Assembly: GCA_964654025.1 (NCBI GenBank)
Contig: CAZZIF010000002.1
Coordinates: forward strand, 883-64,882
DNA: 64,000 nt
DNA from: an uncultured bacterium
Lineage (GTDB): Bacteria; Eisenbacteria; RBG-16-71-46; CAIMUX01; WJJG01
Direction of reading: 5' to 3'
Below the pieces are notes generated by a model, which was not told where the DNA came from, did no database searches, and saw only the letters and a program-made list of their open reading frames with translations. This document shows, one piece after another, positions 3,179 to 64,000 of this stretch (positions are counted from its first letter, which is position 1; every line of letters starts with the position of its first letter). A program made the translations under genes and the position numbers.

Positions 3179-3266
3179 GGGGAGCCTCCTAGGTGAGGTT
3201 TCGGCTGCTGGGCGGTCTCTCCCCAACGCAAATGCGCGTGCGCAGGTGAAGCCGCCCGCAGCCCCG

Positions 3267-18360: not shown

Positions 18361-18740
18361 TTCGCACCGCGGGCCGAGGCCGGCAACGCGCTGGGCGGAT
18401 CGACCTGGCCGCCCTATCATTTCCCACCGCCAGAACATGACCTCAAGATAGCCTTGCCCATCGCGCGGCTCCCACGGGAGAAATCCCATCCGGAGCTTCC
18501 GGAGAATCCTTACTTTGGCCATTGGCGGGGTCGAAGCTCGTCCAGGTGACTAGGACGTTCGAAGGAACTGTCGTACGATGGAGCCGGCGACGGGCTGGAC
18601 GGCGACGGGCTGGACGACGCGGGTTGGTCGCCGGGTTGGTCGACGAGCGGTTCGACGATTTGTTCGGCGTGCTGGCTGGTAGGCCGGTCGATGCCAACAG
18701 AGACAGGGACAGGCCGAGGCTGAGAATAGGAAGACCAAGG

Positions 18741-20597: not shown

Positions 20598-20663
20598 ACG
20601 AGTGGGAAACATCGCCGACGAGCGGGAGACGGAGACACCGTAGACGAGCGGGAAGCACCGTGG
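20578..20663. repeat. ~20-bp tandem repeat (GACGAGCGGGAGACACCGTA) x4 spanning the treZ stop codon and the treZ-malQ/treY spacer
   Basis: Direct reading. Confidence 0.85.
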
Positions 20664-20675
20664 AGAGGAGCGCAC

Positions 20676-25988: not shown

Positions 25989-26115
25989 ACGGCCCGGCCC
26001 CTACTCGGGCTCCCCTCTGCGGCACTGTCCGCATGGGAAATTGTCGGCAACGATGTGCACCGCGGTGGAAGGAACCCCCCTGGGCGGAGGGAACTCCCTG
26101 AAAGGAAGGAGCTGC

Positions 26116-36836: not shown

Positions 36837-37054
36837 GGGTGTTCCCTCCCTCTCTTGCCGTGACGCACCTTGTCCCATCCGGGTGGGCACAGTCCCAAAG
36901 GCGAGGTCAGTCTAGAACGGCGGAGGAAGAGGGCAAATGGGAGCTGTTCTGAGGGCAGCGTGGGAGGGCTCCCGATATTCCGCGCCAGAGTGTGCTTCGT
37001 AGGCTGTGCATGAAGTTCAGGCCGCATGTGCATCGCCCTCCGATGCAACACGAT

Positions 37055-37110
37055 GGCCCCATGACGGTGGCCCGATGATGACGGCCCCATCACGATGGCT
37101 CCATGAAAGC
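37055..37110. repeat. ~15-bp degenerate tandem repeat (GATGGCCCCATSACG) x3 immediately upstream of ppsA
   Basis: Direct reading. Confidence 0.6.
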
Positions 37111-45246: not shown

Positions 45247-47706
45247 TCAGTCCGAGAGATGGGATACGGCAACCGTCTGCCCATGGCTATTGGTTTCATC
45301 CGGCCGCAGACTGAATTCCGCGGTGTCACCGGCACACAGCTCCGCTTCCTCCTGATGACACGCAACGCGGATCGTCCCGGTTCCCATCTCTCGCGCGGTG
45401 ATTCTCAGCTCGTCCCGAGACAGCACCACGACGAGGGAATGTTTTCGGTAGCGTAGGGTCATTCGCAGGCAATCGATGCCGATCGGCAGCGCCGGATTGA
45501 ACCACAGCGCGTCCCCTCGTGTTTCGAGCCCCGTGTAGTTGCGCTGCACGAGATCGACCGTGCCCGCCATGGCGCCGAGATGGATTCCCTCCGGTGTCGT
45601 TCCCCCCTGGATGTCGCTGAGATCGGCATCGAGCGCCTCGCTGAATAACTTCCAGGCCCGTTCACGATCCGACCGTGCCAGCACCCACGCATGAACCACG
45701 TGGCTGAGCGTGGAGCCATGCGGGGTCCGTTTCAAGTAGTACGTGACATTGGCGGGGATCATATCCGGGTGCCACGTGATGCCAAGCCGGGTGAACATCT
45801 CTTCGAGTTCCTCGGCCGAAAACAGATAGAAGAGCATGAGCACATCGGCCTGCTTGGAGACCTTGTAAGCATTGGGCGTGTCGCCTTCGGCCTCCAGAAT
45901 GCGGTCCAAGCGTTGGATGTTGCCGTACTTCTCCCGGTAGCCGTCCCAATCGAACTCCTTGAGGTCGAAGTATCCTTCGAACTGGCTGATGATCCCCTCC
46001 TCGGAAATCACGACGCGCAGTTTCCGGCTGATCTCATCCCAGGCCTCGATTTCGCTCTCGTCGATCCGAAGCAGCTCGCGCAGGGTCGAAAGGCGCTCCT
46101 CCGGAAGAATCTCCAGCAACTCCAGCGCTCGGCAGAGAACCCACGACGCCATGACATTGGTGTAGGCGTTGTTGTCGAGGCCGGGTTCGGGCGTATCCGG
46201 AAGCCGGTCGTGATACTCGTCCGGGCCCATGACCTTGCGAATTTCGTAACAGTCGAAGGTGCTGTTGTAGGTGGCCAAGCTGGCGAAGAGACGGGCGATC
46301 TCCAAGATCATCTCGGCGCCGATCCAGCTCAAGAACTCGCGGTCATCGGTGACCTGATAGTGCTGCCAGACGTTGTAGGCGATGGACGCGTTGACGTGCC
46401 TCTGGAGATGAGTATTGTCCGGCAGCCAGCGCATCGACCTCGGATTGAGGTGAAGCACCTGGCTCTCTTCGCGGCCGTCACTCCCGCTCTGCCAGGGATA
46501 GAGGGCGCCTTGGAAGCCTTCCCGCTGGGCCGCCGCCCGGGCTTCGGAGAGCCGCCGGTACCGGTAGCCGAGCAGCGCGCGCGTTATCTCCGGCATGCGA
46601 AGGTTGAGCGTAGGGAAGATGAACATCTCGTCCCAGAAAATGTGGCCTCGGTAAGCCTCCCCGTGAAGACCTCTGGCCGGGACACCCACATCGAGTCCCA
46701 TGATGTTGGGCGACGCCGTCTGAAGGATGTGAAACAAATGCAGGTGCAGAACCAGCGATGTGTGGGAGGCCTGTTCTTCATCAGGTCCTTCGAGAGCCAG
46801 GTCGAAGCGCTGCCACAGATGGTACCAGAGACCGGCATGCCGGCGCGCCAGCGACTCGAAGTGCTCGGCGCGATCGAGCTCCTTGACGGCAGCCAGACCG
46901 CATTCGGAGATGGCTGGATCCCGAGAGGTATAGAGCGCTACGGTCTTCTCGATCGTGATCGGATGGCCCTCGGCTGCCCGGCAGTCGAAGAACTGAGCAA
47001 CATAGGCATCTTCACCGGCTGCCGTGACGGGAGGGGGCACCTGGCGTCCCTGGCATTCCACGCGGGTGCGGGCCGCCTGGACGATCTCGATGTGGGACTG
47101 GTTCGTGCGTACCCGCAGGAGCATGCCGCCGTTGATGGCACGGGCCTCCAAGGGCTCCAGGTGGCGACTCTCCAGCGGCCGGTAACGAGCGACATTGTCG
47201 TTGATGACACGTCCATCGAGCGCTGATCGGATCTGAATCGTTCCCGACCAGTTTTCGGGAAGCAGCGTTGCCTCCAGAGCTGCCAGATGTGGGCTGTCCA
47301 TGTGGACGAGCCGCCGCGAGCGATACTGCGACACCCGCCCCTCCCGGTCGCGAAAGCGAATGTTCCGCTGCAGGATGCCGCGTTTGAGATCGAGTTGCTG
47401 GTGATAGTCCAGGAGTTCGACGCGGCGGAAGTCGATCCAGTCTTCTCCCGCTACCCGGAGAGAGAGGGGGAGCCAGTTGGGCATGTTGACCAGGTCTTCG
47501 TTTTCGACCTTGTGATGAGCGATTTCGGTTTCGCGCCGGTTGTAGCCGCCCGCCAAGTAGGTGCCGGGATAGTGCACATCGTCGGCTCGGGTCTCCTCCC
47601 CTGCGCCACGCGTTGCGAAGTAGCCATTGCCGAGGGTGCAGAGCGCTTCGCGTAAGCCCTCTTGCTCGGGGGCGAAGCCTTCATAGCTCAGATGCCAGAT
47701 TGACAA
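45247..47706 (-). CDS. Glycoside hydrolase family 65 phosphorylase (trehalose / trehalose-6-phosphate / kojibiose phosphorylase-like)
   Basis: TTG start at 47706 with a GGGAGG RBS, overlapping the stop of the upstream gene by 19 nt. N-terminus WHLSYEGFAPEQEGLREALCTLGNGYFATRGAGEE is the GH65 N-terminal signature. Central (alpha/alpha)6 domain. Confidence 0.8.
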   Translation of the reverse strand: MSIWHLSYEGFAPEQEGLREALCTLGNGYFATRGAGEETRADDVHYPGTYLAGGYNRRETEIAHHKVENEDLVNMPNWLPLSLRVAGEDWIDFRRVELLDYHQQLDLKRGILQRNIRFRDREGRVSQYRSRRLVHMDSPHLAALEATLLPENWSGTIQIRSALDGRVINDNVARYRPLESRHLEPLEARAINGGMLLRVRTNQSHIEIVQAARTRVECQGRQVPPPVTAAGEDAYVAQFFDCRAAEGHPITIEKTVALYTSRDPAISECGLAAVKELDRAEHFESLARRHAGLWYHLWQRFDLALEGPDEEQASHTSLVLHLHLFHILQTASPNIMGLDVGVPARGLHGEAYRGHIFWDEMFIFPTLNLRMPEITRALLGYRYRRLSEARAAAQREGFQGALYPWQSGSDGREESQVLHLNPRSMRWLPDNTHLQRHVNASIAYNVWQHYQVTDDREFLSWIGAEMILEIARLFASLATYNSTFDCYEIRKVMGPDEYHDRLPDTPEPGLDNNAYTNVMASWVLCRALELLEILPEERLSTLRELLRIDESEIEAWDEISRKLRVVISEEGIISQFEGYFDLKEFDWDGYREKYGNIQRLDRILEAEGDTPNAYKVSKQADVLMLFYLFSAEELEEMFTRLGITWHPDMIPANVTYYLKRTPHGSTLSHVVHAWVLARSDRERAWKLFSEALDADLSDIQGGTTPEGIHLGAMAGTVDLVQRNYTGLETRGDALWFNPALPIGIDCLRMTLRYRKHSLVVVLSRDELRITAREMGTGTIRVACHQEEAELCAGDTAEFSLRPDETNSHGQTVAVSHLSD

Positions 47707-49283
47707 AGATCTGCCTCCCTCATCGTCTTGTGCAATTCATCCAGGAAGTGGCGGACGGCGTAGGGATCCTGTAACAGATATTGGGCGTGGGTTTCATGAG
47801 GGCCACCCATGACGGCGATTGCGAGTCCCCTCTCCGAGAGAGCCCCGAAGGCGTCTTCGTCGGTGACGTCATCGCCGATGTAGAGGGGAACCGCCCGGGC
47901 CTCGTCCAGATGCTGCACATCGAGAATCCAGTGGACCGCGCGTCCCTTGTCCCACGGGATGTTGGGTCCGAGGTCGAAGACCTTGCGTCCCCGCGAGACC
48001 CGCAGTTGCGGAATCTCGTCGGTGATCGCGCTGACCTCGGCGGCGATGACCGGAATCAGGCCGGGATCGACCTGGCGCACATGGATTGCGATAGAGTAGC
48101 TCTTGCGCTCGAGTTCTGCGCCCGCCACGCGGCCTACGAGGCTGCGGAGTTTCTGCTCGGCCTCCTCGAGCTTCGGCAAGGTCGCCTGGGCATCGTCCTG
48201 GACGAAGGTCTCTCCCTTCGGCCCTTCGATCTCGAAGCCGTGGCTGCCGGCGTACCACAGGTTCTCGAGCCCGACGCGCCGCTTCACGTCTTGAAGGTCA
48301 CGGCCGCTGACCACGGCAGTGGGAACGCATTGCGCGAGGGTCGCCATGCTCCTGCGCGTCGCCTCGGGTAGGTCCGCCTGGTTGGGATCGTCCACAATCG
48401 GCGAAAGGGTGCCGTCGAAATCGAGAAAGACCGCCAGCTGGCGGTTCCCCAGCTTCTGGGGGAGTGAGTGCAGTAGACGTATCGCGTCCGGCAAAGCGGC
48501 TTTCCGCCGCTGGGGGCCCTGCTTCTTGGGATGGGTCATCTTCACGTCGCCCAGGTCATTGACGACGACATCCGCGCCACCATCGTGAAGATCCTGGTGA
48601 TTGGCATTGCGCGCCACGCCGAGCACGCAGCCGAATCCCCCCCGGTGGCCCGCCGCTACGCCCGACACGGCATCCTCAATCACGATAGCCCGGGCAGGCG
48701 AGACCGACAGGCGCCGAGCGGCCTCCAAGAAGGTGTCGGGTTGCGGCTTGCCGGCCAGACTCTGGCGTTCGGCTTCGACACCATCGACGATGACCTCGAA
48801 GAGGTGATCGAGGTGGGCCGCCTCGAGCAGGGCCCGGGCGTTCTTGCTTGACGAGACCAGGCCGAGGTGGATGCCCCGTTTCTTGGCCTCGTTGAAGAAG
48901 TCGACGGAACTATCGTAGCGCTCCACCCCATCGCGCTGAATTCGCTCGCGGAACTTGCGGTTCTTGTCGTTGCCGATCCCGCAGACCGTCTCACGATCCG
49001 GTAGATCCTCCGGCGAACCCCAGGGCAGCTTGATACCGCGGGAGTCCAGGAAGGACTTGACACCCTCGTAGCGGGGCAGTCCGTCCACGTAGCGCAAGTA
49101 GTCGTGGCGGGGATCGAAGGGATCCTGCGCCTCACCGGTCTTGCCTGAATACTTCGCCAGGAACTCATCGAAGGCGTCCTTCCAGGCCGCCGCGTGGACC
49201 GTCGCCGAACGGGTGACGACGCCGTCGAGATCGCTGATGATGGCATCATAGCGATCCGGCAGGACGATCATCTCTGCAATCAT
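47688..49283 (-). CDS. otsB: Fusion protein: beta-phosphoglucomutase-like HAD domain (N-terminal) + trehalose-6-phosphate phosphatase OtsB domain (C-terminal)
   Basis: AAGGGGG RBS before the ATG at 49283. N-terminal DAIISDLDGVV...GKPQPD (HAD motifs I-III, PgmB-like). C-terminal AVFLDFDGTLSPIVDDP...YIGDDVTDEDAF (T6PP motifs). An in-frame His-rich repeat region upstream (to 49493) leaves an alternative longer start open. Confidence 0.75.
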   Translation of the reverse strand: MIAEMIVLPDRYDAIISDLDGVVTRSATVHAAAWKDAFDEFLAKYSGKTGEAQDPFDPRHDYLRYVDGLPRYEGVKSFLDSRGIKLPWGSPEDLPDRETVCGIGNDKNRKFRERIQRDGVERYDSSVDFFNEAKKRGIHLGLVSSSKNARALLEAAHLDHLFEVIVDGVEAERQSLAGKPQPDTFLEAARRLSVSPARAIVIEDAVSGVAAGHRGGFGCVLGVARNANHQDLHDGGADVVVNDLGDVKMTHPKKQGPQRRKAALPDAIRLLHSLPQKLGNRQLAVFLDFDGTLSPIVDDPNQADLPEATRRSMATLAQCVPTAVVSGRDLQDVKRRVGLENLWYAGSHGFEIEGPKGETFVQDDAQATLPKLEEAEQKLRSLVGRVAGAELERKSYSIAIHVRQVDPGLIPVIAAEVSAITDEIPQLRVSRGRKVFDLGPNIPWDKGRAVHWILDVQHLDEARAVPLYIGDDVTDEDAFGALSERGLAIAVMGGPHETHAQYLLQDPYAVRHFLDELHKTMREADLCQSGI

Positions 49284-49295
49284 GATGGGACCCCC

Positions 49296-49379
49296 TTCAT
49301 GGGCGCCTTGATGGGTGCCTTCATGGGCGCCTTCATGGACGCCTCCATGGGCGCCTCCATGGGCGCCTCCATGCGCGGC
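49296..49379. repeat. 12-bp tandem repeat (TTCATGGGCGCC) x7; in frame with the downstream (minus-strand) otsB-like ORF it would encode (H/A)xGA His-rich repeats
   Basis: Direct reading. Confidence 0.85.
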
Positions 49380-49698
49380 CGGTCGGATCCTCCCGCGCTT
49401 GTTCGAAGAAAGATCCAGCCCCCGCGATCGGGTAGTCGATGCGTTGACGCTAAGCCCAGTCCAGGCAGGCAACAACGGGGGGCGGCCTTGCATGGCACTG
49501 GGGGATCACCCCACCCGTGGGATCGGGAGTGGTGGGAGAGGGAATCGGTTCATCTCGTATGGGCTACCCGAACGAGAGCGCGCATCCTGGGTGTGACGCA
49601 TCGTTGGCCGGCCATGAAGACGCAGCCCGAAGACGCAGTCCGAAGACGCAGTCCCATGTCCGACCATGATCCATGGACGTGAACCAAAGGAGGCCAAG

Positions 49699-50136
49699 GT
49701 GAGCAAGCGCAAGGCGACTGCCCGGTGGCAGGGTAACCTTCGAGATGGTCAGGGGACGATCAGCCTGCAGAGCGGTGCCTTCGAGGGGACCTACGACTTC
49801 CCCTCCCGATTCGAGTCGGGTCCGAATACCAATCCGGAAGAACTGATCGGCGCCGCTCTCGCCGGATGCTATGCCATGGCCTTCACCGGAGTGGCCGAAC
49901 AGCACGGACACTCGCCCCGTGATGTCAACGTGGAGGCCGAGGTCACACTCGAGCGGGGTGAGGAAGGATTCGCGGTTTCGTCGATTCGCTTGTATGTGAA
50001 TGCGGTGGTTCCGGACCTCGAGAAGAAGGATTTCGAGCGGTTTGCAGGCCAGGCCAAGGACTCGTGTGTGATTGCCAAGGCCCTGCGAGGGGTGGAGATT
50101 GAACTCCGAACGTCGTTGAAGGAATCGGCGCAGTAG
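49699..50136 (+). CDS. osmC: OsmC-family peroxiredoxin
   Basis: GTG start with an AAAGGAGG RBS 5 nt upstream. ARWQGNLRDGQGTIS...NPEELIGAALAGCYAMAF aligns with E. coli OsmC, including the conserved Cys pair. Confidence 0.8.
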   Translation: MSKRKATARWQGNLRDGQGTISLQSGAFEGTYDFPSRFESGPNTNPEELIGAALAGCYAMAFTGVAEQHGHSPRDVNVEAEVTLERGEEGFAVSSIRLYVNAVVPDLEKKDFERFAGQAKDSCVIAKALRGVEIELRTSLKESAQ

Positions 50137-50188
50137 TCAGGTGGCGGCTGTGTTCCTAAGATTCGTGCCGCCCTTCGCGGGCCCGCGG

Positions 50189-51133
50189 CTAGTCTTCCAG
50201 AACCACCCGGCCTGAAACCAAGTCCAACAGCTCTCCGGTGATGGCCTGTTGGCGTTGCTGGTTGTGCTGCTGGGTGAGATCGTCCAAACGGTCCTCGATG
50301 TCTTGCTCGGCCGCCTGCATCGACGTCAACCGACTCGCCTGCTCACTGGCCGCCGACTCGGCCAGTGCGCGGAACATGGTGACGAACAGGTACTGCCGGA
50401 TGAGACCTGCGAGAAGCCGGTCCCGGTTCATGCGTGCGATCGGAAGTGAACGAGAGTGCCACGGACGGTTGACGAGATGCCGCAGATGAGACAGGTCCAG
50501 GGGCCAGAGGGTCGTCTCCTCCGGGCGGTATCGGGAGGCCGAGAGGCGCCGGTTGTGGAAGAGGCGAATGCGCTGGATGGCGTGTTCGCTTCGCCATCGT
50601 TCGGCCTGGACGAGAGCCTCGCCGGCTTGCCGGGCGATGCCCTCGGCCTGCGGGGGCACGTCGACGCGGCGGCTCACCCTCAGGCCGGCATCTTGGAGTC
50701 GGGCGGCGACCCGCTCTCCGATCGCCAAGATCCTCGGGCGGGTATCGTCGGTATCTTCGGGTTCGGAGGGACCACCGCCGCCGTCGCCGGCCTTCGGATT
50801 CCCGGCCGTCGACTCAGCATCGCGAGCCAGCTTCTCGATAGCCAGCGAGGCGATATCGTCATTGAACTGCCCGCACATTCCCTGATCCGATCCGATCACG
50901 ATCGCGGCCGTCTCCCGGCCGAGGGGAGTCAGCACTTCCTTCAGTTTCGCGTCCGAGTTTCGCAGCGCAACCTGAAGGGCCAGATCAATCGCCTGCCCCC
51001 ACTCCCCCACGGCGTCGGCCGCGTGCTCGTATTGCCGGATACTGGCGGCAGCGAGGGCCTTCATGCTCTTGACGACCGAATGGAGGTCCTTCGTGCGCTC
51101 GATGCGTCGCTGAAGTGCTCCGAGGGTTTGCAT
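50189..51133 (-). CDS. atpG: N-ATPase (F-type) gamma subunit
   Basis: Gamma N- and C-terminal coiled-coil motifs (RRIERTKDLHSVVKSMKALAAAS, ...ITGELLDLVSG). Contains an acidic ~35-aa insertion (GNPKAGDGGGGPSEPEDTDD). Confidence 0.8.
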   Translation of the reverse strand: MQTLGALQRRIERTKDLHSVVKSMKALAAASIRQYEHAADAVGEWGQAIDLALQVALRNSDAKLKEVLTPLGRETAAIVIGSDQGMCGQFNDDIASLAIEKLARDAESTAGNPKAGDGGGGPSEPEDTDDTRPRILAIGERVAARLQDAGLRVSRRVDVPPQAEGIARQAGEALVQAERWRSEHAIQRIRLFHNRRLSASRYRPEETTLWPLDLSHLRHLVNRPWHSRSLPIARMNRDRLLAGLIRQYLFVTMFRALAESAASEQASRLTSMQAAEQDIEDRLDDLTQQHNQQRQQAITGELLDLVSGRVVLED

Positions 51134-51142
51134 GGACGTACC

Positions 51143-52741
51143 TCATCCACGTTTCTTCAGGATCGACCGGGCCGCGTCCAAGAACGCCTGGCGGTCCTCA
51201 TCCAAGAGCTTCTCCCCGTCCCGGATGCGTTGACTCTGGTCTGCGAGCTTCCCGGGAACCGTGTCTTGGATCTCGCCCAGGACCTCACCCACCTGCTCGG
51301 TGGGCACCGAGTCGAAGAGCCCCTCGTTGAGGGACAGTAAGACGGCGATCTGCTCCGGGACGGTGCGTGGGTGATACTGTGGTTGCTTGAGCACTTCACG
51401 CACCCGGCGGCCTCGCGCCAACGTGGCCTTGGTTTCCTCGTCGAGTCGTGTTCCGAACCGGGCGAAGGACTCCAGCTCTTCGAACTGCGAATACGCCAGG
51501 CGGAGATCTCCCGCAACGGCCCGGTACGCGTCCAGCTGGGCCTTGCCGCCCACGCGTGAGACCGACTTGCCGACATCGACCGCCGGCAAGACGCCTCGTT
51601 GCTGTAGGGTGGGCGAGAGGTAGATCTGCCCATCAGTGATCGAGATCAGGTTCGTGGGGATGTAGGCCGAGATGTTCTGCGCTTGCGTCTCGATGATCGG
51701 CAGGGCCGTTACCGAACCACCGCCCTCCCGATCGCGGAGATGGGTGGCACGTTCGAGCAATCGCGCGTGGACGTAGAAGATATCACCGGGATAGGCTTCA
51801 CGAGCCGGCGGTCGACGCAGAAGCAGGGAGAGTTCCCGGTAGGCCCGGGCGTGCCGGGTGAGATCGTCGAAGACCACCAGTGCATCTTGGCCTTGATCCA
51901 TGTAGTACTCAGCCATGCTCATCGCCGCGTAGGGCGCCACGTACTTGAGACCGGGGGGCTCGTCGCCACCTGCGAAGACGACCGTGCAGGTGTCGAACGC
52001 TCCGTGGGATCGCAAATCGTCGACGACTCGGGCCACGGCCGTGCCGCGCAGGCCGATGGCGCAGTAGATGCATCGAACCTGGGTATCCCGCTGATTGAGG
52101 ATCGCATCGATCGCGATGGCGGTCTTGCCGGTGCGGCGATCCCCGAGAATCAGCTCCCGTTGTCCACGGCCAACCGGAATGAGCGCATCCACGACCCTCA
52201 GTCCAGTCTGCAGCGGAACCGAGACGGGCGCGCGATCGAGGATCTCCGGCGCCGATCGTTCGATTGGACGCCGCTCCTCGGTCTCCACGGGCCCCTGGCG
52301 GTCGAGCGGCCGCCCGGTTGGATCGATGACGCGCCCCAACAGCTTATCGCCCACGGGTACATCCACAACACGGCCCGTCCGCCGAACGATCGATCGCGAC
52401 CCAATCTCGTCCCAGGCATCCAGGAGGGCAATGCCGACCCGGTTGGGCTTCAGCGTGAGGGCCATGCCGCGGAAGCCGCCCTCGAAATGAAGCAGCTCCT
52501 GGGAGCCCACGTGGGGAAGCCCGTCGGCATCGGCGACGCCACGTCCCACCTGCAGAACGGTGCCGACCTCCTCGATGTCCAGCCGGGCAGGCTGGTCCTG
52601 CAGGGTTTGCTCTACCGCGGAGGCCACATCTTCAAGCACGCCTTCGAGCACGCCTTCGAGCGCGCCTTCAAGCGTGCCTTCAGGCACGGCTTCAGGCACG
52701 TCTGCAAGACCGTGCCGGTTGGTGCTGTTTGGGGCCGTCAT
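51143..52741 (-). CDS. atpA: N-ATPase (F-type) alpha subunit; N-terminus carries an in-frame 12-bp x7 tandem repeat encoding (VPEA/TLEG/VLEG) repeats
   Basis: P-loop [15 protein letters not shown]. Repeat at 52631-52714 inside the CDS. Confidence 0.85.
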
Positions 52742-53628
52742 CGGACTTGCTCCCGCTGCTTCTCCGGCGCGCTTGGCTCGTCTTGCTCGCCCGATTCCCC
52801 TTCTCCTTCCTCACGGTCAGGGTTACCGCGGGTCGCCGGGTGATCCAAGAGTCCCACGAGGTTCTCCTCGAGTCGATCCAGGTGATGATCGAGACTCCAG
52901 GCCAACCGATGTCCGCCCGCCGATAGCTCGAGACCGCAGAGGAGATCGTCGTCCTCGGTCGCGTGGATCTCGACCTGCATGTCGAGGCGCCCTTCGACCG
53001 CCTCCTGAAGTCTCTTGCCAGCATCATCCGATAGAGCGTGCGAGCTTCGAACATGGAGTGTCCCGTCGTTGTCGCGCACCGCCTTGGCAAGAGGCTTCGT
53101 CTTCTCCTCGTCGAGAGCCTCGAGTTTCTCGATCAAGGTGGAGACGATCTGAGCATGGAGTTCCTGGTCGGCGAGCTCGTGCAGCGCGTGACGACTCACG
53201 GCGCAGACCTGCCGGCCCGACTCTCTCCGGAGAGCCTTCAGGAAGTCGCCGCGCTCGCGCTCGAGGCTTTGGACCCAACGCTGCCGTCGGGCCTGGATGT
53301 CATCGCGCAGTCGGCGCGATTCTTCCGCATGCTGCTTCTCAGCCTTCTCCCGAGCGGATCGGAGGATTGCCTGCCGTTCGCCTTCGAGCTCCTCCTTCTG
53401 TCGCCGCAACTCCGCCTGGCGCCGTTCGGCCGCTTTCTCCTTCTCCTGGGCTTCGTCGAGGTGTTCGGCGATGCGCCGTTCGCGCGCATCCATGGCGGCG
53501 ACGATGCGGTCGTACAGGAAGTGCTTCAAGAGCAGCACCAGGATCACGAAGTTGACAATCTGGGCTCCGAATGTGAACCAATCAATCTGCACGGCAAGCC
53601 GTCCTATTGTTGAGTGAAGTGACTCCAA
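52738..53628 (-). CDS. atpF: N-ATPase subunit b (long, 296 aa; possibly b/delta-like)
   Basis: Single N-terminal TM helix, then a long charged coiled-coil ([28 protein letters not shown]). Start uncertain; as called it overlaps the 3' end of atpE by ~25 nt. Confidence 0.55.
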
Positions 53629-53873
53629 AATGGATTGGCGAAGATCAGGATGATCGCCACCACGAAGCAGTAGATGGCGGTCGACTCGATCATCGCCATC
53701 CCTACGAAGAGGGTTCGCGTGATCGTGTTCGATTCATCCGGTTGCTGTGCGATGGCGGCGAGCGCCCGAGCGAGTGCACGCCCCTCACCGAGGGCCGGAC
53801 CGATCGATCCGATCGCGATCGTGAGTCCGGAGATGATGATCGATCCGAGAGCTACGAGGTCCGCGCTTTCCAT
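53604..53873 (-). CDS. atpE: N-ATPase subunit c with complete Na+-binding signature
   Basis: 89 aa, two TM helices. Helix 1 has Q (AQQPDE). Helix 2 has [23 protein letters not shown], matching the Ilyobacter tartaricus E65-S66-T67...Y70 Na+ ligands ([21 protein letters not shown]). Confidence 0.8.
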   Translation of the reverse strand: MESADLVALGSIIISGLTIAIGSIGPALGEGRALARALAAIAQQPDESNTITRTLFVGMAMIESTAIYCFVVAIILIFANPFWSHFTQQ

Positions 53874-53933
53874 GAGTCCTTCTCCTGATTGGCCATTCGG
53901 TGGTAGCGGCGCCCGGTGCCGGCCACGCCGTGG

Positions 53934-54605
53934 CTAGTTGTCCTGTATTCTCGAGGCCGAGGCGATGTAGACCATCGCGAGCACGGCGAAGATGTAAGCG
54001 TGAATCTGTCCAATGAGCAGTTGCAGGGCCTGCATCACCGCCGGGAAGATGACCGGCACGACGGTCAGCAAGACGGCCACGATCAGCGTGCCGCTCATGA
54101 CGTTGCCGAACAGACGCACGGCCAGCGCGAGCGTTCGCGATAGCTCCCCGATCACGTGGAAGGGGAGCATCAGGGCAGAGGGCCTCACGTAGTGTGCCAG
54201 GTACCCTCTGAGGCCGCTGCGAGCAATGCCATAGGCCGGCACTGCCACGAATACGCACGCCGCCAGCGCACCGGTCGTCGACAGGGAGCCGGTCGGGGCA
54301 TGGTAGCCGGGAACGATGCTCAGGAAATTGGCCAGTGAGATGAACAGGAAGAGCGTACCCAGGAAAGGGAGATACCGAGCCGTCTTGCCACTGGTCACCT
54401 CCCGGATCTGATCCTGCATGTAGCTCACCACGGCCTCGAGCATCATCTGCCAGCGCGAGTAAGGTGGTTGCGAGGTGATTCGCCGGGTGACCAGCTGGGC
54501 CATCCCGACCAGCAGGAGCATCACGACCCAGGTGAAGACCAGGGTCGCATTGAGCGCAACCGGCCCCAGCTGGACGATGACGATACTGTCTGGGTTGATT
54601 TCCAT
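53934..54605 (-). CDS. atpB: N-ATPase subunit a
   Basis: Five TM helices. Conserved stator Arg in LAVRLFGNVMSG. Confidence 0.8.
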   Translation of the reverse strand: MEINPDSIVIVQLGPVALNATLVFTWVVMLLLVGMAQLVTRRITSQPPYSRWQMMLEAVVSYMQDQIREVTSGKTARYLPFLGTLFLFISLANFLSIVPGYHAPTGSLSTTGALAACVFVAVPAYGIARSGLRGYLAHYVRPSALMLPFHVIGELSRTLALAVRLFGNVMSGTLIVAVLLTVVPVIFPAVMQALQLLIGQIHAYIFAVLAMVYIASASRIQDN

Positions 54606-54644
54606 ACCATACCCTTTGGGTGTTGTTTGCGAACTGGATGACGA

Positions 54645-54941
54645 TCAGAGCCTTCCCACGAGGATGCCCTTCTTGGGGCCCAGGCGGCGGATCAGAATCG
54701 TTCGCGCGGCGATGAACCCAGCCAATGACGCCAGGACCGCCGGCCAGCCCCAGTGGATCGCCAGCAGCGAAATCACATAGATCGCAACCGAGAAACGCAC
54801 GAGCAGGGCCAGGACCGTCAGTGCGGTCGGCCAACGGGTGTGAGGCAGGCGGTGCGTCATCCACCACAGGACGCTGAAGTAGAATGCGCCCAGGGCTAGC
54901 CCCGCGATCAGCGACAGAATGACTTGGCCGACTACAGACAT
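54645..54941 (-). CDS. atpR: N-ATPase accessory membrane protein AtpR
   Basis: 98 aa, 3 TM helices with a conserved Arg. Positioned between atpQ and atpB as in N-ATPase operons. Confidence 0.55.
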   Translation of the reverse strand: MSVVGQVILSLIAGLALGAFYFSVLWWMTHRLPHTRWPTALTVLALLVRFSVAIYVISLLAIHWGWPAVLASLAGFIAARTILIRRLGPKKGILVGRL

Positions 54942-55020
54942 GATGGTCTGCGTACTCCCTTCTCCGAAATGCGTTCGGCGCGGCCGCCCTCGCCGACCCG
55001 GTGCGATCTGCGGACTCGCG

Positions 55021-55423
55021 CTACCGTGATTCCTGACGGTTCTGGATGCGTTCGGCTTCGCCTCCGCCTTCCGATGGGGGCGGTCCCTGCCCGGTTGCGG
55101 GCGAATCGTCCCGATGGATCTGTTCTCGTTCGCGGCGCACCCAGAACCATGCGTTTAGGCAGCCCAGGGTCACGCCGATGATCATGAACGTCAGCGTCCA
55201 GGAAACGGAGGTGCCTGAATGGCCTTGTTGGGCATCGAGCCAGAGTCCTACCACGATGCCGATCACCGTAGGGATGGCCACGGACCAGCCGACGATGCCG
55301 AAGGTCCCCAACCCGAACCACAGGCTGTGCTCCTTCTGCTTTGCGGCGCGCATTTTGCGCCGACGTTTCCGCTCGGCGGCCTGGCGGAAGCGCTTGGCCC
55401 CGGGCTCCATTCGGGGAGCGGGC

Positions 55424-55431
<8 letters not shown>
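55021..55431 (-). CDS. atpQ: N-ATPase accessory membrane protein AtpQ (AtpZ/AtpI-like)
   Basis: 136 aa. Basic N-terminus then 2-3 TM helices. Position after atpC is characteristic of atpDCQRBEFAG. Confidence 0.5.
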
Positions 55432-59194
<3,763 letters not shown>

Positions 59195-59277
59195 GACCGG
59201 CACTCGGGGCGGAGAGGTCCCCGAAGAAGGACAGGGAGCGAAGGATGGCGGTAGATGCGGATGGCTGAGGAGGAATC

Positions 59278-61332
59278 ATGCCCGGGCAGAAGACGACCAA
59301 GGGGGAGCGTGTAAATGAGATGACGAAGAAGGAGGCCCAAAAGCGAGCCAAAGAGCTTCGCGAGGAGGTCTCCCATCATGATTTCCTCTACTACGTCAAG
59401 AATGATCCGGAGATCTCCGATGCCGCCTACGACCGGCTCAAGGGCGAGTTGGAGAAGATCGAAGAACGATTCCCGGATCTGGTGACTGCGGACAGCCCAA
59501 TGCAGCGAACCGGGGGGGAACCGCAAGAGCAGTTCGGGACCGTCACGCACGAGACACCGATGTTGAGCTTGCAGGCGGTTCCGGACCGGGAGGGGTTCGA
59601 GTCCTTCTACGAGCGCACTTGTGACGATCTGGGCGAGGAGAAGGTGACGCTGGTCGGGGAGCCGAAGTACGACGGCGTGAGCGTGGAGCTGATCTACGAA
59701 AACGGCCAACTCGAAACGGGATCCACGCGTGGAGATGGTCGGGAAGGGGAGGACATCACCCCGAACGTCAAGACGATTCCGCAGGTCTTGTTGAATCTGA
59801 GGCAACCCAAGAACGCTTCCCGCCCACGACACCTCGTCGTCCGGGGCGAAGTGTACATGGAGAAGGAGGCGTTCCGCGACTTCAACGACCGACAGGAGGA
59901 GGCCGGAAAGAAGACATTTGCCAATCCACGAAATGCAGCGGCCGGAAGCCTGAGGCAGCTGGATCCCAAGATCACTTCGGAACGTCCCCTGCAGGTCTAC
60001 TTCTGGGAGATTGCCGCCTCTTCGAGTTCCCGGCCGGCGACCCATTGGGAATGTCTCGACCTGCTCGCTCGCCTCGGACTGCGAACCAACGAGTACGCCC
60101 AGCGATGTGAAGATCAGCAAGAAGCCATCGACTGGCAGGCGGACATGGCGAACCGGCGCCAGGGGCTGCCCTTCGAGATCGATGGCTGCGTTTTCAAGGT
60201 CGACCGGCTGAAGGCCTACGACTCCCTTGGTACGCGAGCCGCCAATCCCCGCTGGGCGGTGGCGTGGAAGTTCCCGCCCGCGCGGGAGTCCAGCCGCATC
60301 AAGGAGATCGAGGTCCAGGTGGGCCGAACCGGAGCGCTGACACCGGTGGCGGTTCTCGAGCCGATCTCGATTGGCGGCGTGAAGGTGAGTCATGTCTCGT
60401 TGCACAATCAGGATGAGATCGATCGGCTGGATGTCGCCGAGGGCGACACCGTGTTGGTCGAACGGGCTGGGGATGTCATTCCCCACGTCGTCAAGGTGAC
60501 GAAACGCAAGGGCGGGAAACGCAGTACGTATCGGTTGCCCAAGAAGTGCCCGGTTTGCCATGGCGACGTCGTCAGGCCCGAAGGCGATGCGATTGCCCGG
60601 TGCACCAATCCCTCGTGCCCTGCGCGGATCGAGCAGAGCCTGTTGCATTTCGCTTCCTCCGAAGCACTCGACATCGATGGTCTGGGCGAGAAGGTTGTGC
60701 ATCAACTCCTGGAAGCCGGATTGGTGTCGGATCTGAGCGAGCTATTCAGTCTGAAGAGCAAGGACCTCGAGAAGCTCGAACGAATGGGACCCAAACGGGC
60801 GGAGAATGTGATTCAGTCGATCGAGGAGGCCCGGACGAAGGCCACCTTGCCTCGGTTGATCTACGGTCTGGGCATCCCGCATGTGGGACGGGCGTTCGCC
60901 GGCGATCTGGCGGCTGCCTTCGGGTCACTCGAGGCGCTGGCGGAGGCCTCGGAAGAAGACCTGCTCGAGCAGGAAGGCATGGGACCGACCAGGGCGCAGG
61001 CCATCGCGGGTTGGTTCGATAACAAACAGAATCACAAACTCGTTCACAAGCTGAAGAAACAGGGCCTCGATCCCCGGTTCTCCCAGAAGAAGGGCGCCCT
61101 CGCCGGGAAGGTCGTCGTCTTCACCGGCGGCCTCGATGCGATGTCCCGGGATGAGGCGAAAGAGGCGGTACTCGAACAAGGGGGCAAGGCGACCGGCAGT
61201 GTATCAGGGAACACCGATCTGCTCGTGGCCGGCGCCGATCCGGGCGACACCAAGATGGAGAAGGCCCGCGACGAGGATGTCAAGGTCATCGGTGAGGGAG
61301 AGTTCCTCGATCTGATCGGAGAGGAGCGGTAG
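59278..61332 (+). CDS. ligA: NAD+-dependent DNA ligase
   Basis: GAGGAGG RBS 5 nt before the ATG at 59278. KYDGVSVELIYENG adenylation Lys. OB fold, Zn finger (CPVCHGDV...C..PSCPA), HhH and C-terminal BRCT. Confidence 0.9.
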   Translation: MPGQKTTKGERVNEMTKKEAQKRAKELREEVSHHDFLYYVKNDPEISDAAYDRLKGELEKIEERFPDLVTADSPMQRTGGEPQEQFGTVTHETPMLSLQAVPDREGFESFYERTCDDLGEEKVTLVGEPKYDGVSVELIYENGQLETGSTRGDGREGEDITPNVKTIPQVLLNLRQPKNASRPRHLVVRGEVYMEKEAFRDFNDRQEEAGKKTFANPRNAAAGSLRQLDPKITSERPLQVYFWEIAASSSSRPATHWECLDLLARLGLRTNEYAQRCEDQQEAIDWQADMANRRQGLPFEIDGCVFKVDRLKAYDSLGTRAANPRWAVAWKFPPARESSRIKEIEVQVGRTGALTPVAVLEPISIGGVKVSHVSLHNQDEIDRLDVAEGDTVLVERAGDVIPHVVKVTKRKGGKRSTYRLPKKCPVCHGDVVRPEGDAIARCTNPSCPARIEQSLLHFASSEALDIDGLGEKVVHQLLEAGLVSDLSELFSLKSKDLEKLERMGPKRAENVIQSIEEARTKATLPRLIYGLGIPHVGRAFAGDLAAAFGSLEALAEASEEDLLEQEGMGPTRAQAIAGWFDNKQNHKLVHKLKKQGLDPRFSQKKGALAGKVVVFTGGLDAMSRDEAKEAVLEQGGKATGSVSGNTDLLVAGADPGDTKMEKARDEDVKVIGEGEFLDLIGEER

Positions 61333-61441
61333 CTACCGAAGACATGCGCCCCCCGGTGCCATCGGCTGGTCCGAGGGACAGGAACAGCTGAGGACAAGAC
61401 GCAACCTTCAAGAGGGTTGCACGATCACAGGAGTTGACCGT

Positions 61442-62569
61442 ATGAAGACAAATGCTCTGCAGGAGCTTCGCAAGCTGGGCCAGGGTATCTGGCTGGATTA
61501 TTGGCACCGCGGGATGCTGGAGGATGGTGAGTTTCAGCGGCTGCTGACCGAAGATGGCATCACCGGCGTGACGACAAACGCGAGCTTGTTTCAGCAGGCG
61601 TTGGCCGAAGGCGAGGTCTATGGAGCTGCCATGGACGGCCTGGCGGCTCTGGATCTGCCGGCCGAGGAGATCTACCGCCGGCTGGTGGTCGAAGACGCGC
61701 AAGCGGCAGCCGACCTTCTGGAACCGATCCACGCGCAAAGCGATGGACGGGATGGCTATGTGTGCCTGGCGGTGAATCCGCAGCTGACACATGACAGCGA
61801 CGCGACGACCGCGGATGCTCTCGATCTGTGGACGCGTGTGAAACGGCCGAATCTCATGATCAAGGTTCCCGCGACCGATGCCGGCCTGCTCGCGATTCGT
61901 CATCTCACGGCCGAAGGAGTGAATACGAACGCAACCCTGATTTTCGATCCCGATCGCTACGAACAAGCCGCCGAAGCGTACGTGAGCGGCTTGCAGGCCC
62001 GCTTGCAGCGGAGCGAGTCGATCCGGGGAATCACCGGCGCCGCCAGCGTGTTGGTTGGCCGGATCGACCTGCGAATCGATGCCATGATACGTGAAGGGAT
62101 CGGACAGAACCCCGATCGGACTGAGCTGGCCGGCAAGCTTGAAGGGAGTGTCGGCATCGCCGTTGCCCGGCAGAGTCTCTTGTTTCACAAGCGCATCTTC
62201 GACGAGGAGCCCTTCCGCCGGCCGGCCAGTGCGGGTGCCACCCCCCAGCGCTTGGTGTGGGCCAGCACGGGGCCCAAGTCTGCCCGGTACGACGAGCACA
62301 AGTATGTCGATGCGCTGGTGGGGGCCGACACGATCGTGGCGATGCACCCGGCCACACTCGATTCCTATCGCGAGCGGGGCAAGCCCGCGCGTCGCCTGGA
62401 GGAGACCCTTGACCAGGCGCGTTATTGCCTCGATCAGATGCCGGCGGCCGACATCGACTTGTCGGCCGTCGGCCGGAGTCTGGAGAACGAGGGCATCCGC
62501 GCGTTTGCGACGGCGCGCCAGGTCACCTTGCAGCAGATCGAGGCCCGGCGGGAATCGGCCGCCCGGTGA
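61442..62569 (+). CDS. tal: Transaldolase (long actinobacterial/cyanobacterial-type)
   Basis: GIWLDYWHRGML...GVTTNASLF and the Schiff-base Lys in NLMIKVPAT. Confidence 0.8.
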   Translation: MKTNALQELRKLGQGIWLDYWHRGMLEDGEFQRLLTEDGITGVTTNASLFQQALAEGEVYGAAMDGLAALDLPAEEIYRRLVVEDAQAAADLLEPIHAQSDGRDGYVCLAVNPQLTHDSDATTADALDLWTRVKRPNLMIKVPATDAGLLAIRHLTAEGVNTNATLIFDPDRYEQAAEAYVSGLQARLQRSESIRGITGAASVLVGRIDLRIDAMIREGIGQNPDRTELAGKLEGSVGIAVARQSLLFHKRIFDEEPFRRPASAGATPQRLVWASTGPKSARYDEHKYVDALVGADTIVAMHPATLDSYRERGKPARRLEETLDQARYCLDQMPAADIDLSAVGRSLENEGIRAFATARQVTLQQIEARRESAAR

Positions 62570-63218: not shown

Positions 63219-63884
63219 ACCAACCTCCTTCTGGCACTGGGGCGTGTGGCGGTGGGGACTCAAGGTGGATGGCTTCGTCATGTGCGCGCCCATCACCCAG
63301 ATCCACCGCACGGCCTTTGTCGTCCTCTTACTTTGCAGAGGTTTTCCGCACGGGCAATCAGGGTATGTCCCCGTCGAGGGTTCGGGAAGAATTTGGGTGG
63401 GGGAACTCCCGAGGCAGGGAACCGCAGGGATCCCGATTGTGCCCGGCCGGCTCCTCCCGCACGATGCGCCTGTCATGGACGCCACAAGCCATGGCGCATC
63501 GGATCCTCGAGAGGGAAACGGGAGTTCCTCCGTGACGCACACAGGGCGCCTGCCCTGGCCCCGACTCACGTTTCCTGAGGAAGCGGCGCAATGCCGCAAC
63601 GCGTGCCCGGCCGGTTCGATAAGAGATCGCACCCGAATGCTCTCTCGCTGACCACCCGACCGGCCGGGCCCCGCCCCCCTTCCTCAGACGACGGGCTCAG
63701 TCCGCCTCCAGGTCCTTCTCCGCTGCCCGGTCCGGAAAGAGGTGGATTCGTTCCAGGTCGAGGTTCAAGCCGACCGGGACCTCCCCGGGATCACGGTCCG
63801 CCAGCACCAGCAAGCCCTGTCTACCGATATCCACGTGCAGGAGAAAGCCAGTTCCCAAGTTCTCCACAACGCGGACCTTCCCCC

Positions 63885-63968
63885 GAATCTTGCCTCGCTC
63901 GGGCGGAATCTTGCCTCGCTCGGGCGGAATCTCGGCTCGCTCGGGCGGAATCTCGCCTCGCTCGGGCG
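63885..63968. repeat. 21-bp tandem repeat (GAATCTYGSCTCGCTCGGGCG) x4
   Basis: Direct reading near the window end. Confidence 0.85.
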
Positions 63969-64000
63969 CGAGTACACGGATGTGTTCCGGACGGATGCCG

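Follow-up and report, generated by a model that had tools for sequence, protein, structure and literature searches.

Tandem repeats that vary in copy number between strains (VNTRs) are known from bacterial coding sequences. Their units are arranged head to tail and have a length divisible by three, strains gain or lose whole units, and the protein changes in length without a frameshift; such changes are attributed to strand slippage or recombination, and the best-known examples lie in surface and virulence proteins (PMC3899988). In the phase-variable loci of Neisseria and Haemophilus, repeats with units of 1–7 bp act as on/off switches, through a frameshift or through altered promoter spacing (PMC3899988). 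The N-type ATPases, in turn, are always a second, accessory copy in complete genomes; they share a characteristic operon order, the AtpQ and AtpR proteins, a long b subunit with a delta-like end, the lack of a separate delta gene, and a c subunit with Glu in helix 1 and an ESTxxY motif (Dibrova et al., 2010, PMC2881411). In the F-type ATP synthase of E. coli, cryo-EM revealed that the peripheral stalk contacts the N-terminal helices of the alpha subunits (PMC5214741).

Here we describe a 12-bp tandem array at the 5' end of the alpha subunit gene of an N-type ATPase, found in a 64-kb stretch of DNA (the window) from an uncultured bacterium. The features of the host operon are as follows:

50189–57242, minus strand: N-ATPase operon atpD-C-Q-R-B-E-F-A-G, assigned from gene order and profiles, with the beta start at ATG 57242
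51143–52741, minus strand: atpA, alpha subunit of an N-type (alternate F1Fo) ATPase, 532 aa (TIGR03324)
52738–53628, minus strand: atpF, long b subunit of 296 aa, delta-like in its C-terminal region, that carries a ~40-residue acidic tail (TIGR03321)
52622–52705, minus strand: 12-bp × 7 in-frame tandem array in atpA, codons 13–40
52738–52741, minus strand: ATGA in which the start of atpA (ATG) overlaps the stop of atpF (TGA), a translational-coupling junction
52750–52754, minus strand: GGGAG Shine-Dalgarno-like motif 8 nt upstream of the atpA ATG (anti-SD duplex)

The identity of the host gene is demonstrated by its profile scores: the alpha subunit reached 773.7 bits with the curated N-type model TIGR03324 (cut-off 750.5) and 615.8 bits with TIGR00962. 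The 'alternate' models of the a, c and epsilon subunits also scored above their cut-offs, while those of beta, gamma and b fell 2–11 bits below theirs (beta, TIGR03305, 750.1 bits, 2 bits under; b, TIGR03321, 222.5 bits, slightly below the cut-off of 224.7). For every subunit the alternate model outscored the generic TIGR F-type model, and all of them thus group with the N-type enzymes. The gene order is that of N-ATPase operons and is also seen in two related loci, L002 and L083. AtpQ and AtpR are both present (TIGR02230, 113.5 bits; TIGR03165, 57.8 bits; both above cut-off), and their orthologues are annotated with PF09527 and PF12966. The c subunit (89 aa; TIGR03322, 153.4 bits) has GEG (residue 29) and ESTAIY (residue 63); it carries the full set of Na+ ligands, and the enzyme is predicted to translocate Na+. 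The atpF and atpA genes overlap at ATGA, with no delta (atpH) ORF in between. Residues 181–257 of b match positions 101–177 of the delta profile NF004402, and nothing of delta beyond this C-terminal part could be recognized in the fused subunit. A second atp operon was not found within the window. Judged by these sequence features, atpA belongs to an N-type ATPase, which is presumably accessory. As N-ATPases are always accessory in complete genomes (PMC2881411), the placing of the repeat in an essential ATPase subunit, proposed in a preliminary description of this DNA, is unsupported.

The array itself was delimited with TRF at 52630–52708 (period 12, 6.6 copies, 83% matches, score 88). Its units, taken in codon phase along the minus strand, read GCAGACGTGCCT / GAAGCCGTGCCT / GAAGGCACGCTT / GAAGGCGCGCTC / GAAGGCGTGCTC / GAAGGCGTGCTT / GAAGATGTGGCC and encode 28 residues, the last two units overlapping the N-terminal helix conserved in the family. 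As a chance control, the window was shuffled 30 times with its dinucleotide composition preserved, and arrays with a TRF score of at least 50 were counted. There were 0.33 on average, with a top score of 63, and both 12-bp arrays of the window (score 88 for that in atpA and 119 for a second one, described below) are well above this level. The array and its reading frame are thus demonstrated: the units follow head to tail beyond chance, and their length of 12 bp, a multiple of three, keeps the frame within what is, judged from sequence, a real CDS. The preliminary description had reported just such an in-frame 12-bp × 7 repeat, and TRF and the codon-phase units bear it out; the peptide that it quoted is exact, while its coordinates (52631–52714) are off by ~9 nt.

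Comparison with relatives, all of them metagenome assemblies and some covered only ~5x, directly revealed copy-number alleles: (i) the window alpha has seven units, and a protein-identical entry (P0122) is present in the protein collection; (ii) an independent assembly with a 99.2% identical alpha (P0001, locus L001) has five units, through an exact 24-bp deletion; (iii) the 96.7% identical alpha of P0124 (locus L083) has about three; and (iv) the 75.5% identical alpha of P0002 (locus L002) has no repeat. Whole-unit differences between strains, as had been anticipated, are therefore present, and the array behaves as a slippage-type length polymorphism of the alpha N-terminus. In total, 123 N-ATPase alpha N-termini were compared, and the tandem peptide repeat occurs in this lineage only; it was sought in ~119 other N-ATPase alphas and found in none. 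A scan of contigs with the alpha sequence recovered 80 N-ATPase loci, none closer than 67% identity. Scans of JGI metagenomes with an exact 23-mer from the 3' side of the array and with a codon-degenerate pattern of an 11-residue peptide gave no matches, and the run and assembly accessions could not be traced in the literature.

Two other readings of the atpA data have to be weighed at this point. It could be suspected that assembly created the repeats or the differences in copy number, since all sequences come from metagenome assemblies and two contigs have a coverage of only ~5x. This is extremely improbable, because the arrays (84 bp) are shorter than a typical read and their units can be told apart, the same array structure is present in independent assemblies (ENA, NCBI, Logan), the differences are exact whole units between otherwise near-identical flanks, and the more distant L083 has its own diverged short version. 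It is also conceivable that the array is not translated at all, the alpha subunit starting at an internal GTG (V31 in the seven-unit allele) and the array forming a variable atpF/atpA spacer that alters coupling. V31 stands directly before the conserved helix and would give a tail of 27 residues, the minimum in the family; the NCBIfam alpha profile begins at residue 34; most arrays in this genome are non-coding, several of them just upstream of starts; and the leader before the array is poorly conserved. We nevertheless consider such an internal start quite unlikely. The internal GTGs of atpA have anti-SD energies of -0.5 to -3.8 kcal/mol, those of V31, V35 and V39 being -3.5 to -3.8 kcal/mol at 10-nt spacing, close to the mean of random positions (-3.7), whereas ATG 52741, whose duplex has -6.6 kcal/mol with 7 nt between the scored 9-nt segment and the start, ranks first among six candidate starts. 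In L001 and L083 the atpA start overlaps the atpF stop as ATGA, as in the window; in L002 the overlap is 8 nt long, so an overlapping start is conserved in all four lineages. The five-unit allele has Thr (ACG) just before the conserved helix, which leaves no start between repeat and helix and places the start within or upstream of the repeat. The repeat-free 75% relative also has a 12-residue leader read from the overlapping ATG, and independent gene callers picked the same atpA start. The overlap of ATG 52741 with the atpF stop, together with its having the best Shine-Dalgarno sequence among the candidates, argues that the repeat is most likely translated from this ATG.

Read in this way, the alpha subunit has an N-terminal tail of 57 residues before the E-V-G column of the beta-barrel, compared with a median of 33 in the N-ATPase family, and its tetrapeptide repeat is absent from the ~119 relatives examined. 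The helix motif of the family, L-x-x-x-L-D, begins inside the array. In an AlphaFold2 model of the subunit (pTM 0.75), residues 1–21 have a pLDDT of ~40 and a helix extends over residues 24–49, so that the N-terminal helix, which in F-ATPases binds the stalk, is extended through the LEGx units. According to this model, the stalk-facing helix would gain length at its free end from the LEGx units, and disorder is predicted for the two units with Pro and for the 12-residue leader. Window residue 37 aligns to residue 6 of the alpha subunit of Bacillus PS3 (PDB 4xd7/6n2y). Residues from about 32 onwards thus correspond to PS3 alpha from residue 1 onwards, which places the last two units in the helix that contacts the stalk in F-ATPases (PMC5214741), and the suggestion that the repeat lies at the stalk-contact region agrees with this alignment to solved F1 alphas, in which it abuts and overlaps the helix. 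The N-type enzyme differs from the F-type enzyme with its alpha/delta (OSCP) interface in that N-ATPases have no separate delta, and only its C-terminal part is detectable here in the fused b. No structure of an N-ATPase F1 or stalk was found in the PDB copy searched. It should be mentioned that the leader of ~11–12 residues before the array diverges fast between the window and L083, as expected of an unconstrained tail and equally of non-coding DNA.

Taken together, the array is probably a lineage-specific coding minisatellite (VNTR) that is translated and lies where the alpha gene of a presumably accessory N-type ATPase begins. It is an ordinary slippage polymorphism and not a new kind of element. 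It probably arose by whole-unit tandem duplication, through replication slippage or unequal recombination, of a 12-bp segment encoding one E-x-V-L turn of the N-terminal amphipathic helix. From the one turn of the 75% relative it would have grown to about three, five and seven units in progressively closer strains, each step adding or removing tetrapeptides while keeping the frame. Several features could explain why such steps are tolerated: the unit is four codons long, the N-terminal tail of N-ATPase alphas naturally varies in length, these enzymes have no separate delta (here only its C-terminal part, fused in b), and the enzyme is presumably a second, non-essential ATPase. Variation in copy number is probably near-neutral. 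The difference from the best-known coding VNTRs of surface and virulence proteins is that the array sits in the N-terminal tail of a cytoplasmic subunit, in the catalytic sector of a rotary ATPase, and that its variation bears no sign of selection.

The importance of this finding is modest. It provides a clean coding minisatellite in a catalytic subunit of a rotary ATPase, for which a growth series of one, three, five and seven units could be reconstructed from relatives. Tolerance of 8-residue steps by the N-terminal tail of an N-ATPase alpha may be a useful hint for engineering the stator of a delta-less enzyme or for solving its structure.

We further analyzed the second 12-bp array, which lies 3.3 kb away, together with two other arrays near gene starts:

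47688–49283, minus strand: fusion of a HAD (beta-PGM family) domain and trehalose-6-phosphate phosphatase (HAD-T6PP), 531 aa (TIGR00685, TIGR02009)
49290–49373, minus strand: 12-bp × 7 array (CATGGAGGCGCC type) in the 5' leader of the HAD-T6PP gene (TRF and alignment)
49280–49372, minus strand: nested uORF in a different frame, hypothetical translation (MEAP)2-MEAS-(MKAP)2-IKAP-MKGVPS and stop
49616–49654, plus strand: 13-bp × 3 array ~45 nt upstream of the OsmC start (TRF)
57259–57298, minus strand: 17-bp × 2.4 array ending 17 nt upstream of the start of atpD and of the operon (TRF)

TRF placed the HAD leader array at 49294–49377 (period 12, 7.0 copies, 88% matches, score 119). It stops 6 nt before the start codon and its copy number is polymorphic (7/6/5/~3/~1/0). 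The OsmC-upstream array also varies, with one unit fewer in L085 and more in L083. A promoter and terminator scan of the HAD/OsmC intergenic region found no sites, and no sigma-70-like hexamers flank the 5' arrays; Rfam gave no matches in the whole window at the gathering threshold or in the HAD/OsmC intergenic region at E ≤ 1.

The atpA array is one instance of a habit of the whole genome. The window contains 26 tandem arrays against 0.33 expected from the shuffles, and the enrichment is demonstrated by their density, 0.41/kb in the window, 0.14/kb in the sister lineage L083 and 0.10/kb in 1.26 Mb of unrelated loci; short arrays are thus about four times more frequent than in comparable loci, and nearly all of them are intergenic. 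They are spread over all 64 kb beside unrelated genes. A second in-frame array (21 bp × 4, encoding PPERGxI) was found in another ORF. Only one of the indels of at least 3 nt that separate close strains is something other than a gain or loss of whole array units.

Several more elaborate interpretations of these arrays were considered. According to the preliminary description, the HAD-T6PP protein would carry a translated His-rich (AHGG/AHEG)n extension at its N-terminus. Such an extension would start at ATG 49493, from which the frame is open for 70 codons, and in four close strains it is open too, including across an in-frame 27-nt deletion. The real start, however, is ATG 49283 (M71 of the 601-aa ORF). 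It has a Shine-Dalgarno duplex of -11.4 kcal/mol at 6-nt spacing, in the top 1%, against -6.0 kcal/mol at 13 nt for ATG 49493; the four closest homologues (99% to 61% identity) are each 531 aa long, exactly the length from M71; and among the listed matches none covers the His-rich extension and none spans more than 90% of the 601-aa ORF. In L087, an 84% relative, a stop interrupts the extension frame and the upstream ATG reads in a different one, and 9 of 10 substitutions in the extension between the window and L083 are nonsynonymous, many at second codon positions (alignment read by eye). The array therefore lies upstream of the real start, the His-rich tail is unsupported, and we hold it to be highly unlikely. 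Thus two appealing ideas, an essential ATP synthase varied by a repeat and a natural His-tag on a trehalose phosphatase, have been corrected. Also highly unlikely is a common origin of the two 12-bp arrays as copies of one dispersed repeat family. Both have a period of 12 and about seven copies, and their units share GAAGGCG on the same strand. They had been called a near-identical 12-mer family, a view that does not hold: with the rotation optimized, the units agree at 8 of 12 positions, a level reached by random 12-mers of the window with P ~0.10–0.13. The shared 7-mer has P ~0.02 per pair, yet there are 325 array pairs, several unrelated ones sharing 7–8-mers, and GAAGGCG occurs 24 more times in the window outside arrays. 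In addition, the two arrays go back to separate local proto-repeats, seen in the relatives L083, L087 and L002.

The widest alternative is that the arrays are adaptive tuning elements, that in the alpha N-terminus tuning stator attachment and those in the atpD, HAD-T6PP and OsmC leaders tuning the expression of a salt/osmotic-stress island, with the HAD array as a set of SD-AUG modules acting by uORF termination-reinitiation. Four arrays do lie in one osmotic-stress neighbourhood, three of them shown to vary between strains, and for other bacteria it is well documented that repeats in promoters and leaders affect regulation (PMC3899988). Units 1–3 of the HAD array give GGAGG-N4/5-ATG with -9.3 kcal/mol, in the top 5% of random positions, so that three uORF ATGs have GGAGG 4–5 nt upstream; the uORF stop (TGA) overlaps the HAD ATG, and shorter uORFs exist in L083 (MKAPIKTPMKGIPS and stop) and L087 (MERAPP and stop). 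Like phase-variable loci, these arrays lie just upstream of starts (HAD-T6PP, OsmC, atpD) and change by whole units between strains. We nevertheless regard the tuning reading as unlikely. Since arrays occur over the whole window beside unrelated genes, a cluster of them at stress genes is nothing special; the TGA overlap is automatic, the second HAD codon being ATT; and the 5' array of ppsA (37050–37106) has no SD pattern. The units are 12–17 bp, not 1–7 bp, and no promoter hexamers flank them. The atpA array, whose 12-bp units keep the frame in every allele, cannot frameshift and cannot switch the gene on or off. It is very unlikely that the arrays at the alpha N-terminus and in the atpD, HAD-T6PP and OsmC leaders are selected 'tuning knobs' and not neutral products of slippage. 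If they were, the number of alpha units would set the grip of the stator on the catalytic head of a delta-less N-ATPase, the HAD array would be an SD-AUG battery loading ribosomes onto a uORF that is AUGA-coupled to the trehalose-phosphatase gene, and strains could set their Na+ extrusion and trehalose synthesis in a heritable and rapidly reversible way.

Near-neutral slippage thus remains the preferred reading for these arrays, and in an uncultured lineage whose strain-level indels are dominated by them they could serve as strain-typing markers. A general rule by which 5' arrays duplicate SD-ATG modules was considered and rejected, since the pattern is true of the HAD array and not of the ppsA array. 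The arrays also need to be heeded when gene starts are called in MAGs of this lineage. In the beta gene, the HAD-T6PP gene and others, taking the longest ORF pushes the start through an array and extends the gene spuriously.

Tandem Repeats Finder reported an array of period 12 in the alpha-subunit gene at 52630–52708 (6.6 copies, 83% matches, score 88) and another at 49294–49377 (7.0 copies, 88% matches, score 119), next to the gene of the fusion of HAD and trehalose-6-phosphate phosphatase (HAD-T6PP). Both arrays are real: in 30 dinucleotide-preserving shuffles of the window, the mean number of arrays with a score of at least 50 was 0.33 and the top score was 63. In codon phase, the atpA array consists of seven units on the minus strand (52622–52705), corresponding to codons 13–40 of the ORF 51143–52741(-) and encoding 28 residues. 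Thus, both the program and the shuffles confirm the repeat noticed in the atpA N-terminus in the preliminary description; the peptide quoted there is exact, while its positions were about 9 nt off.

The nearest database protein, P0001 (ENA assembly ERZ10759785), is 99.2% identical to the window alpha and eight residues shorter; alignment of the DNA of the two loci revealed a single clean 24-bp gap inside the array, with near-identical flanks. In the 90%-identity cluster, P0122 is identical to the window protein, and P0124 from the sister lineage L083 (GCA_964573295.1; 516 aa, 96.7% identity) has about three units. In the fully syntenic L002 (GCA_964585945.1), with an alpha 75.5% identical, ALERVLPPVAAS is present with no repeat. 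No tandem peptide repeat was found outside this lineage among 123 N-ATPase alpha N-termini. Sequence comparison across the relatives gives the unit series 1, about 3, 5 and 7, growing from the natural i/i+4 periodicity of the amphipathic helix. The whole-unit alleles (7, 5 and about 3) found when copy number was compared across relatives bear out the earlier suggestion of strain variation at this site, and they support slippage-type length polymorphism at the stalk-facing alpha N-terminus.

The choice of start codon matters, since the alpha family profile begins at residue 34 (most relatives align from residue 32) and the tail ahead of the beta-barrel E-V-G column is 57 residues long, whereas 119 relatives have a median of 33 and a minimum of 27. 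ATG 52741 overlaps the atpF stop as ATGA, as also in L001 (the locus of P0001) and L083; the overlap is 8 nt in L002. Its anti-SD pairing (-6.6 kcal/mol, 7-nt spacing) is the strongest among the six in-frame candidates; internal GTGs range from -0.5 to -3.8 kcal/mol at 9–10 nt, around the mean of -3.7 for random positions. In the window alpha, the helix conserved across the family, L-x-x-x-L-D-x-(T)-(F), is L32-E-G-V-L-E-D-V-A and therefore begins inside the array. In the 5-unit allele the codon ahead of the helix Leu is ACG, so that this allele has no start codon between the repeat and the helix. A start at the internal GTG V31 would give the 7-unit allele a tail equal to the family minimum, and the leader ahead of the array diverges fast between the window and L083, which speaks against a start at ATG 52741. 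However, five lines of evidence favor ATG 52741: the atpF overlap, the SD, the helix beginning inside the array, the 12-residue leader that the repeat-free L002 also carries ahead of the helix, and independent gene calls that picked the same ATG. The array is very probably translated from ATG 52741.

On the minus strand, from 57242 to 50189, the genes run in the order beta, epsilon, AtpQ, AtpR, a, c, long b, alpha, gamma, with no delta gene among them. In the NCBIfam comparison, the 'alternate F1F0 ATPase' model ranks first or second for each subunit. Alpha scores 773.7 bits against TIGR03324 (cut-off 750.5), the scores of the a, c, epsilon, AtpQ (TIGR02230) and AtpR (TIGR03165) models exceed the cut-offs, and those of the beta, gamma and b models lie within 2–11 bits of them. 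The c subunit contains GEG in helix 1 and ESTAIY in helix 2, and residues 181–257 of the 296-aa b subunit align with the C-terminal portion of a delta profile. The gene set, long b and c motifs are features defining the N-ATPase of Dibrova et al. (PMC2881411), which is thought to extrude Na+ and in complete genomes is always a second copy next to a normal ATP synthase (PMC2881411). By these features the array-bearing operon encodes an N-ATPase; given this and the second-copy status of such enzymes in complete genomes, alpha is not established as the essential ATPase subunit it had been taken for. Past the family profile, the b subunit has an acidic, Gly/Pro-rich tail of about 40 residues (52738–52860), which varies between relatives and whose coding DNA directly adjoins the alpha repeat.

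N-ATPase alpha was not found in the PDB copy, where ordinary F1 alphas were the best matches. Residue 37 of the window alpha aligns with residue 6 of the Bacillus PS3 alpha, which places the canonical N-terminus at about window residue 32. By this alignment, the last two array units lie in the alpha N-terminal helix, which in E. coli is in contact with the peripheral stalk (PMC5214741). In an AlphaFold2 model built with 52 family sequences (pTM 0.75), residues 1–21 (the leader and two Pro-containing units) are disordered, with pLDDT of about 40, and residues 24–49 form one helix with confidence climbing from 56 to 80. From this helix, the LEGx units are predicted to prolong it at its free N-terminal end. 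Of delta, the C-terminal part alone is detectable in N-ATPases, within b (PMC2881411), with which the profile match here agrees. We infer that the alpha tail is free to vary.

In total, the window contains 26 arrays with a score of at least 50 (0.41 per kb). The density is lower both in L083 (0.14 per kb) and in unrelated N-ATPase loci, of which 1.26 Mb gave 0.10 per kb. The majority of the window arrays lie between genes, with periods of 9–30 bp. Those with at least three copies sit, with few exceptions, between genes or at gene boundaries, and most of their periods are not divisible by three. The arrays examined inside long 'ORFs' (at 3258 and 18585) fall in 5' extensions that are spurious.

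Other tandem arrays in the window
57259–57298: 17-bp unit, 2.4 copies, ending 17 nt before the true atpD start (ATG 57242, 485 aa)
49616–49654: 13-bp unit (GAAGACGCAGTCC), 3 copies, about 45 nt ahead of the probable GTG start of OsmC (SD AAGGAGG)
37050–37106: 14-bp unit (ACGATGGCCCCATG), 4 copies, directly upstream of a PEP-synthase-like 818-aa ORF
63885–63968: 21-bp unit, 4 copies, 95% matches, in-frame in the partial ORF 63697–63999 (minus strand) running off the window end

The longest atpD ORF (558 aa) was rejected as a spurious extension of the 485-aa protein through the 17-bp array. The 14-bp units contain ATG and no SD-like motif. The 21-bp array, the second coding in-frame array of the window, encodes PPERGEI-PPERAEI-PPERGKI-PPERGKI (PPERGxI); by eye, the ORF that contains it resembles the C-terminal regulatory domain of a MalK/UgpC-type ABC ATPase.

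Among near-identical strains, all indels of at least 3 nt are whole-unit array changes, except one 27-nt deletion.

Whole-unit indels between near-identical strains
atpA array: 2 units fewer
HAD array: 1 unit fewer in one case, 2 fewer in another
13-bp array of the OsmC leader: 1 unit fewer

The OsmC-leader array is one unit shorter in L085 and has additional units in L083. In view of the array enrichment and the whole-unit indels, the atpA repeat is one instance of a lineage-wide propensity, and it has probably been kept inside the gene owing to its four-codon unit and its position in a tolerant tail.

The HAD array (units at 49290–49373; coding-strand unit CATGGAGGCGCC) reads in frame with the HAD-T6PP ORF and varies likewise.

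Units of the HAD array
Window: 7
L085: 6
L084: 5
L083: about 3
L087 (84% relative): about 1
L002: 0

The His-rich tail proposed for HAD-T6PP is not credible on four counts. Each of the four closest homologues, which range from 99% to 61% in identity, has 531 aa, the length from M71, and none of the matches listed covers the extension. M71 (ATG 49283) has an SD of -11.4 kcal/mol at 6-nt spacing (top 1% of positions), versus -6.0 kcal/mol at 13 nt for the upstream ATG 49493. L087 has a stop in the extension frame, its upstream ATG being in a different frame, and substitutions in the extension between the window and L083, read from the alignment, are almost all non-synonymous.

In units 1–3 of the HAD array, GGAGG precedes an out-of-frame ATG by 4–5 nt (-9.3 kcal/mol). 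The nested uORF reads (MEAP)2-MEAS-(MKAP)2-IKAP-MKGVPS*, and short versions are present in L083 and L087. Its TGA overlaps the HAD ATG, an automatic consequence of the ATG-ATT start. It possibly serves ribosome loading. An intergenic block with a CCCACGGGTGGGG hairpin (about 49400–49560, minus strand) is conserved in L083 and L087, apparently at least as well as the flanking genes; it has no Rfam match, even at E<=1, and could be a regulatory leader or promoter region. In L084, a 27-nt deletion between GGATC direct repeats (window 49385–49411) removes a hairpin of the HAD leader (GGATCyTyC...GGGAGGATCC), in which the two C-to-T differences of the window relative to L083 would retain G.U pairing in RNA.

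The two 12-bp arrays had been described as a near-identical 12-mer family. Their units, GAAGGCGCCCAT and GAAGGCGTGCTC, agree at 8/12 positions, a level reached by random window 12-mers with P of about 0.10–0.13. A shared 7-mer has P of about 0.02 per pair, the window holds 325 array pairs, and several unrelated pairs have 7–8-mers in common. Comparison of relatives showed that each array derives from its own local proto-repeat. A common repeat family was therefore rejected.

The phenomenon seen here, variable-number tandem repeats in coding and leader sequences, is well known (PMC3899988). It seems very improbable that selection maintains the arrays, including the tandem SD-AUG uORF, as tuning elements of a salt-stress island. 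The neighborhood (about 18500–26000 and 45247–62569) looks like an osmotic/salt-stress island, with the N-ATPase and its Na+-motif c subunit, OsmC, HAD-T6PP, a GH65 phosphorylase, an MscS channel and a TreZ-like amylase; its synteny is common to L002 and L083. In L084 (1742–4201), two ORFs (357 + 459 aa) are called where the window has a single GH65 ORF of 819 aa; the split is a frameshift/pseudogene or, at about 5x coverage, an assembly error.
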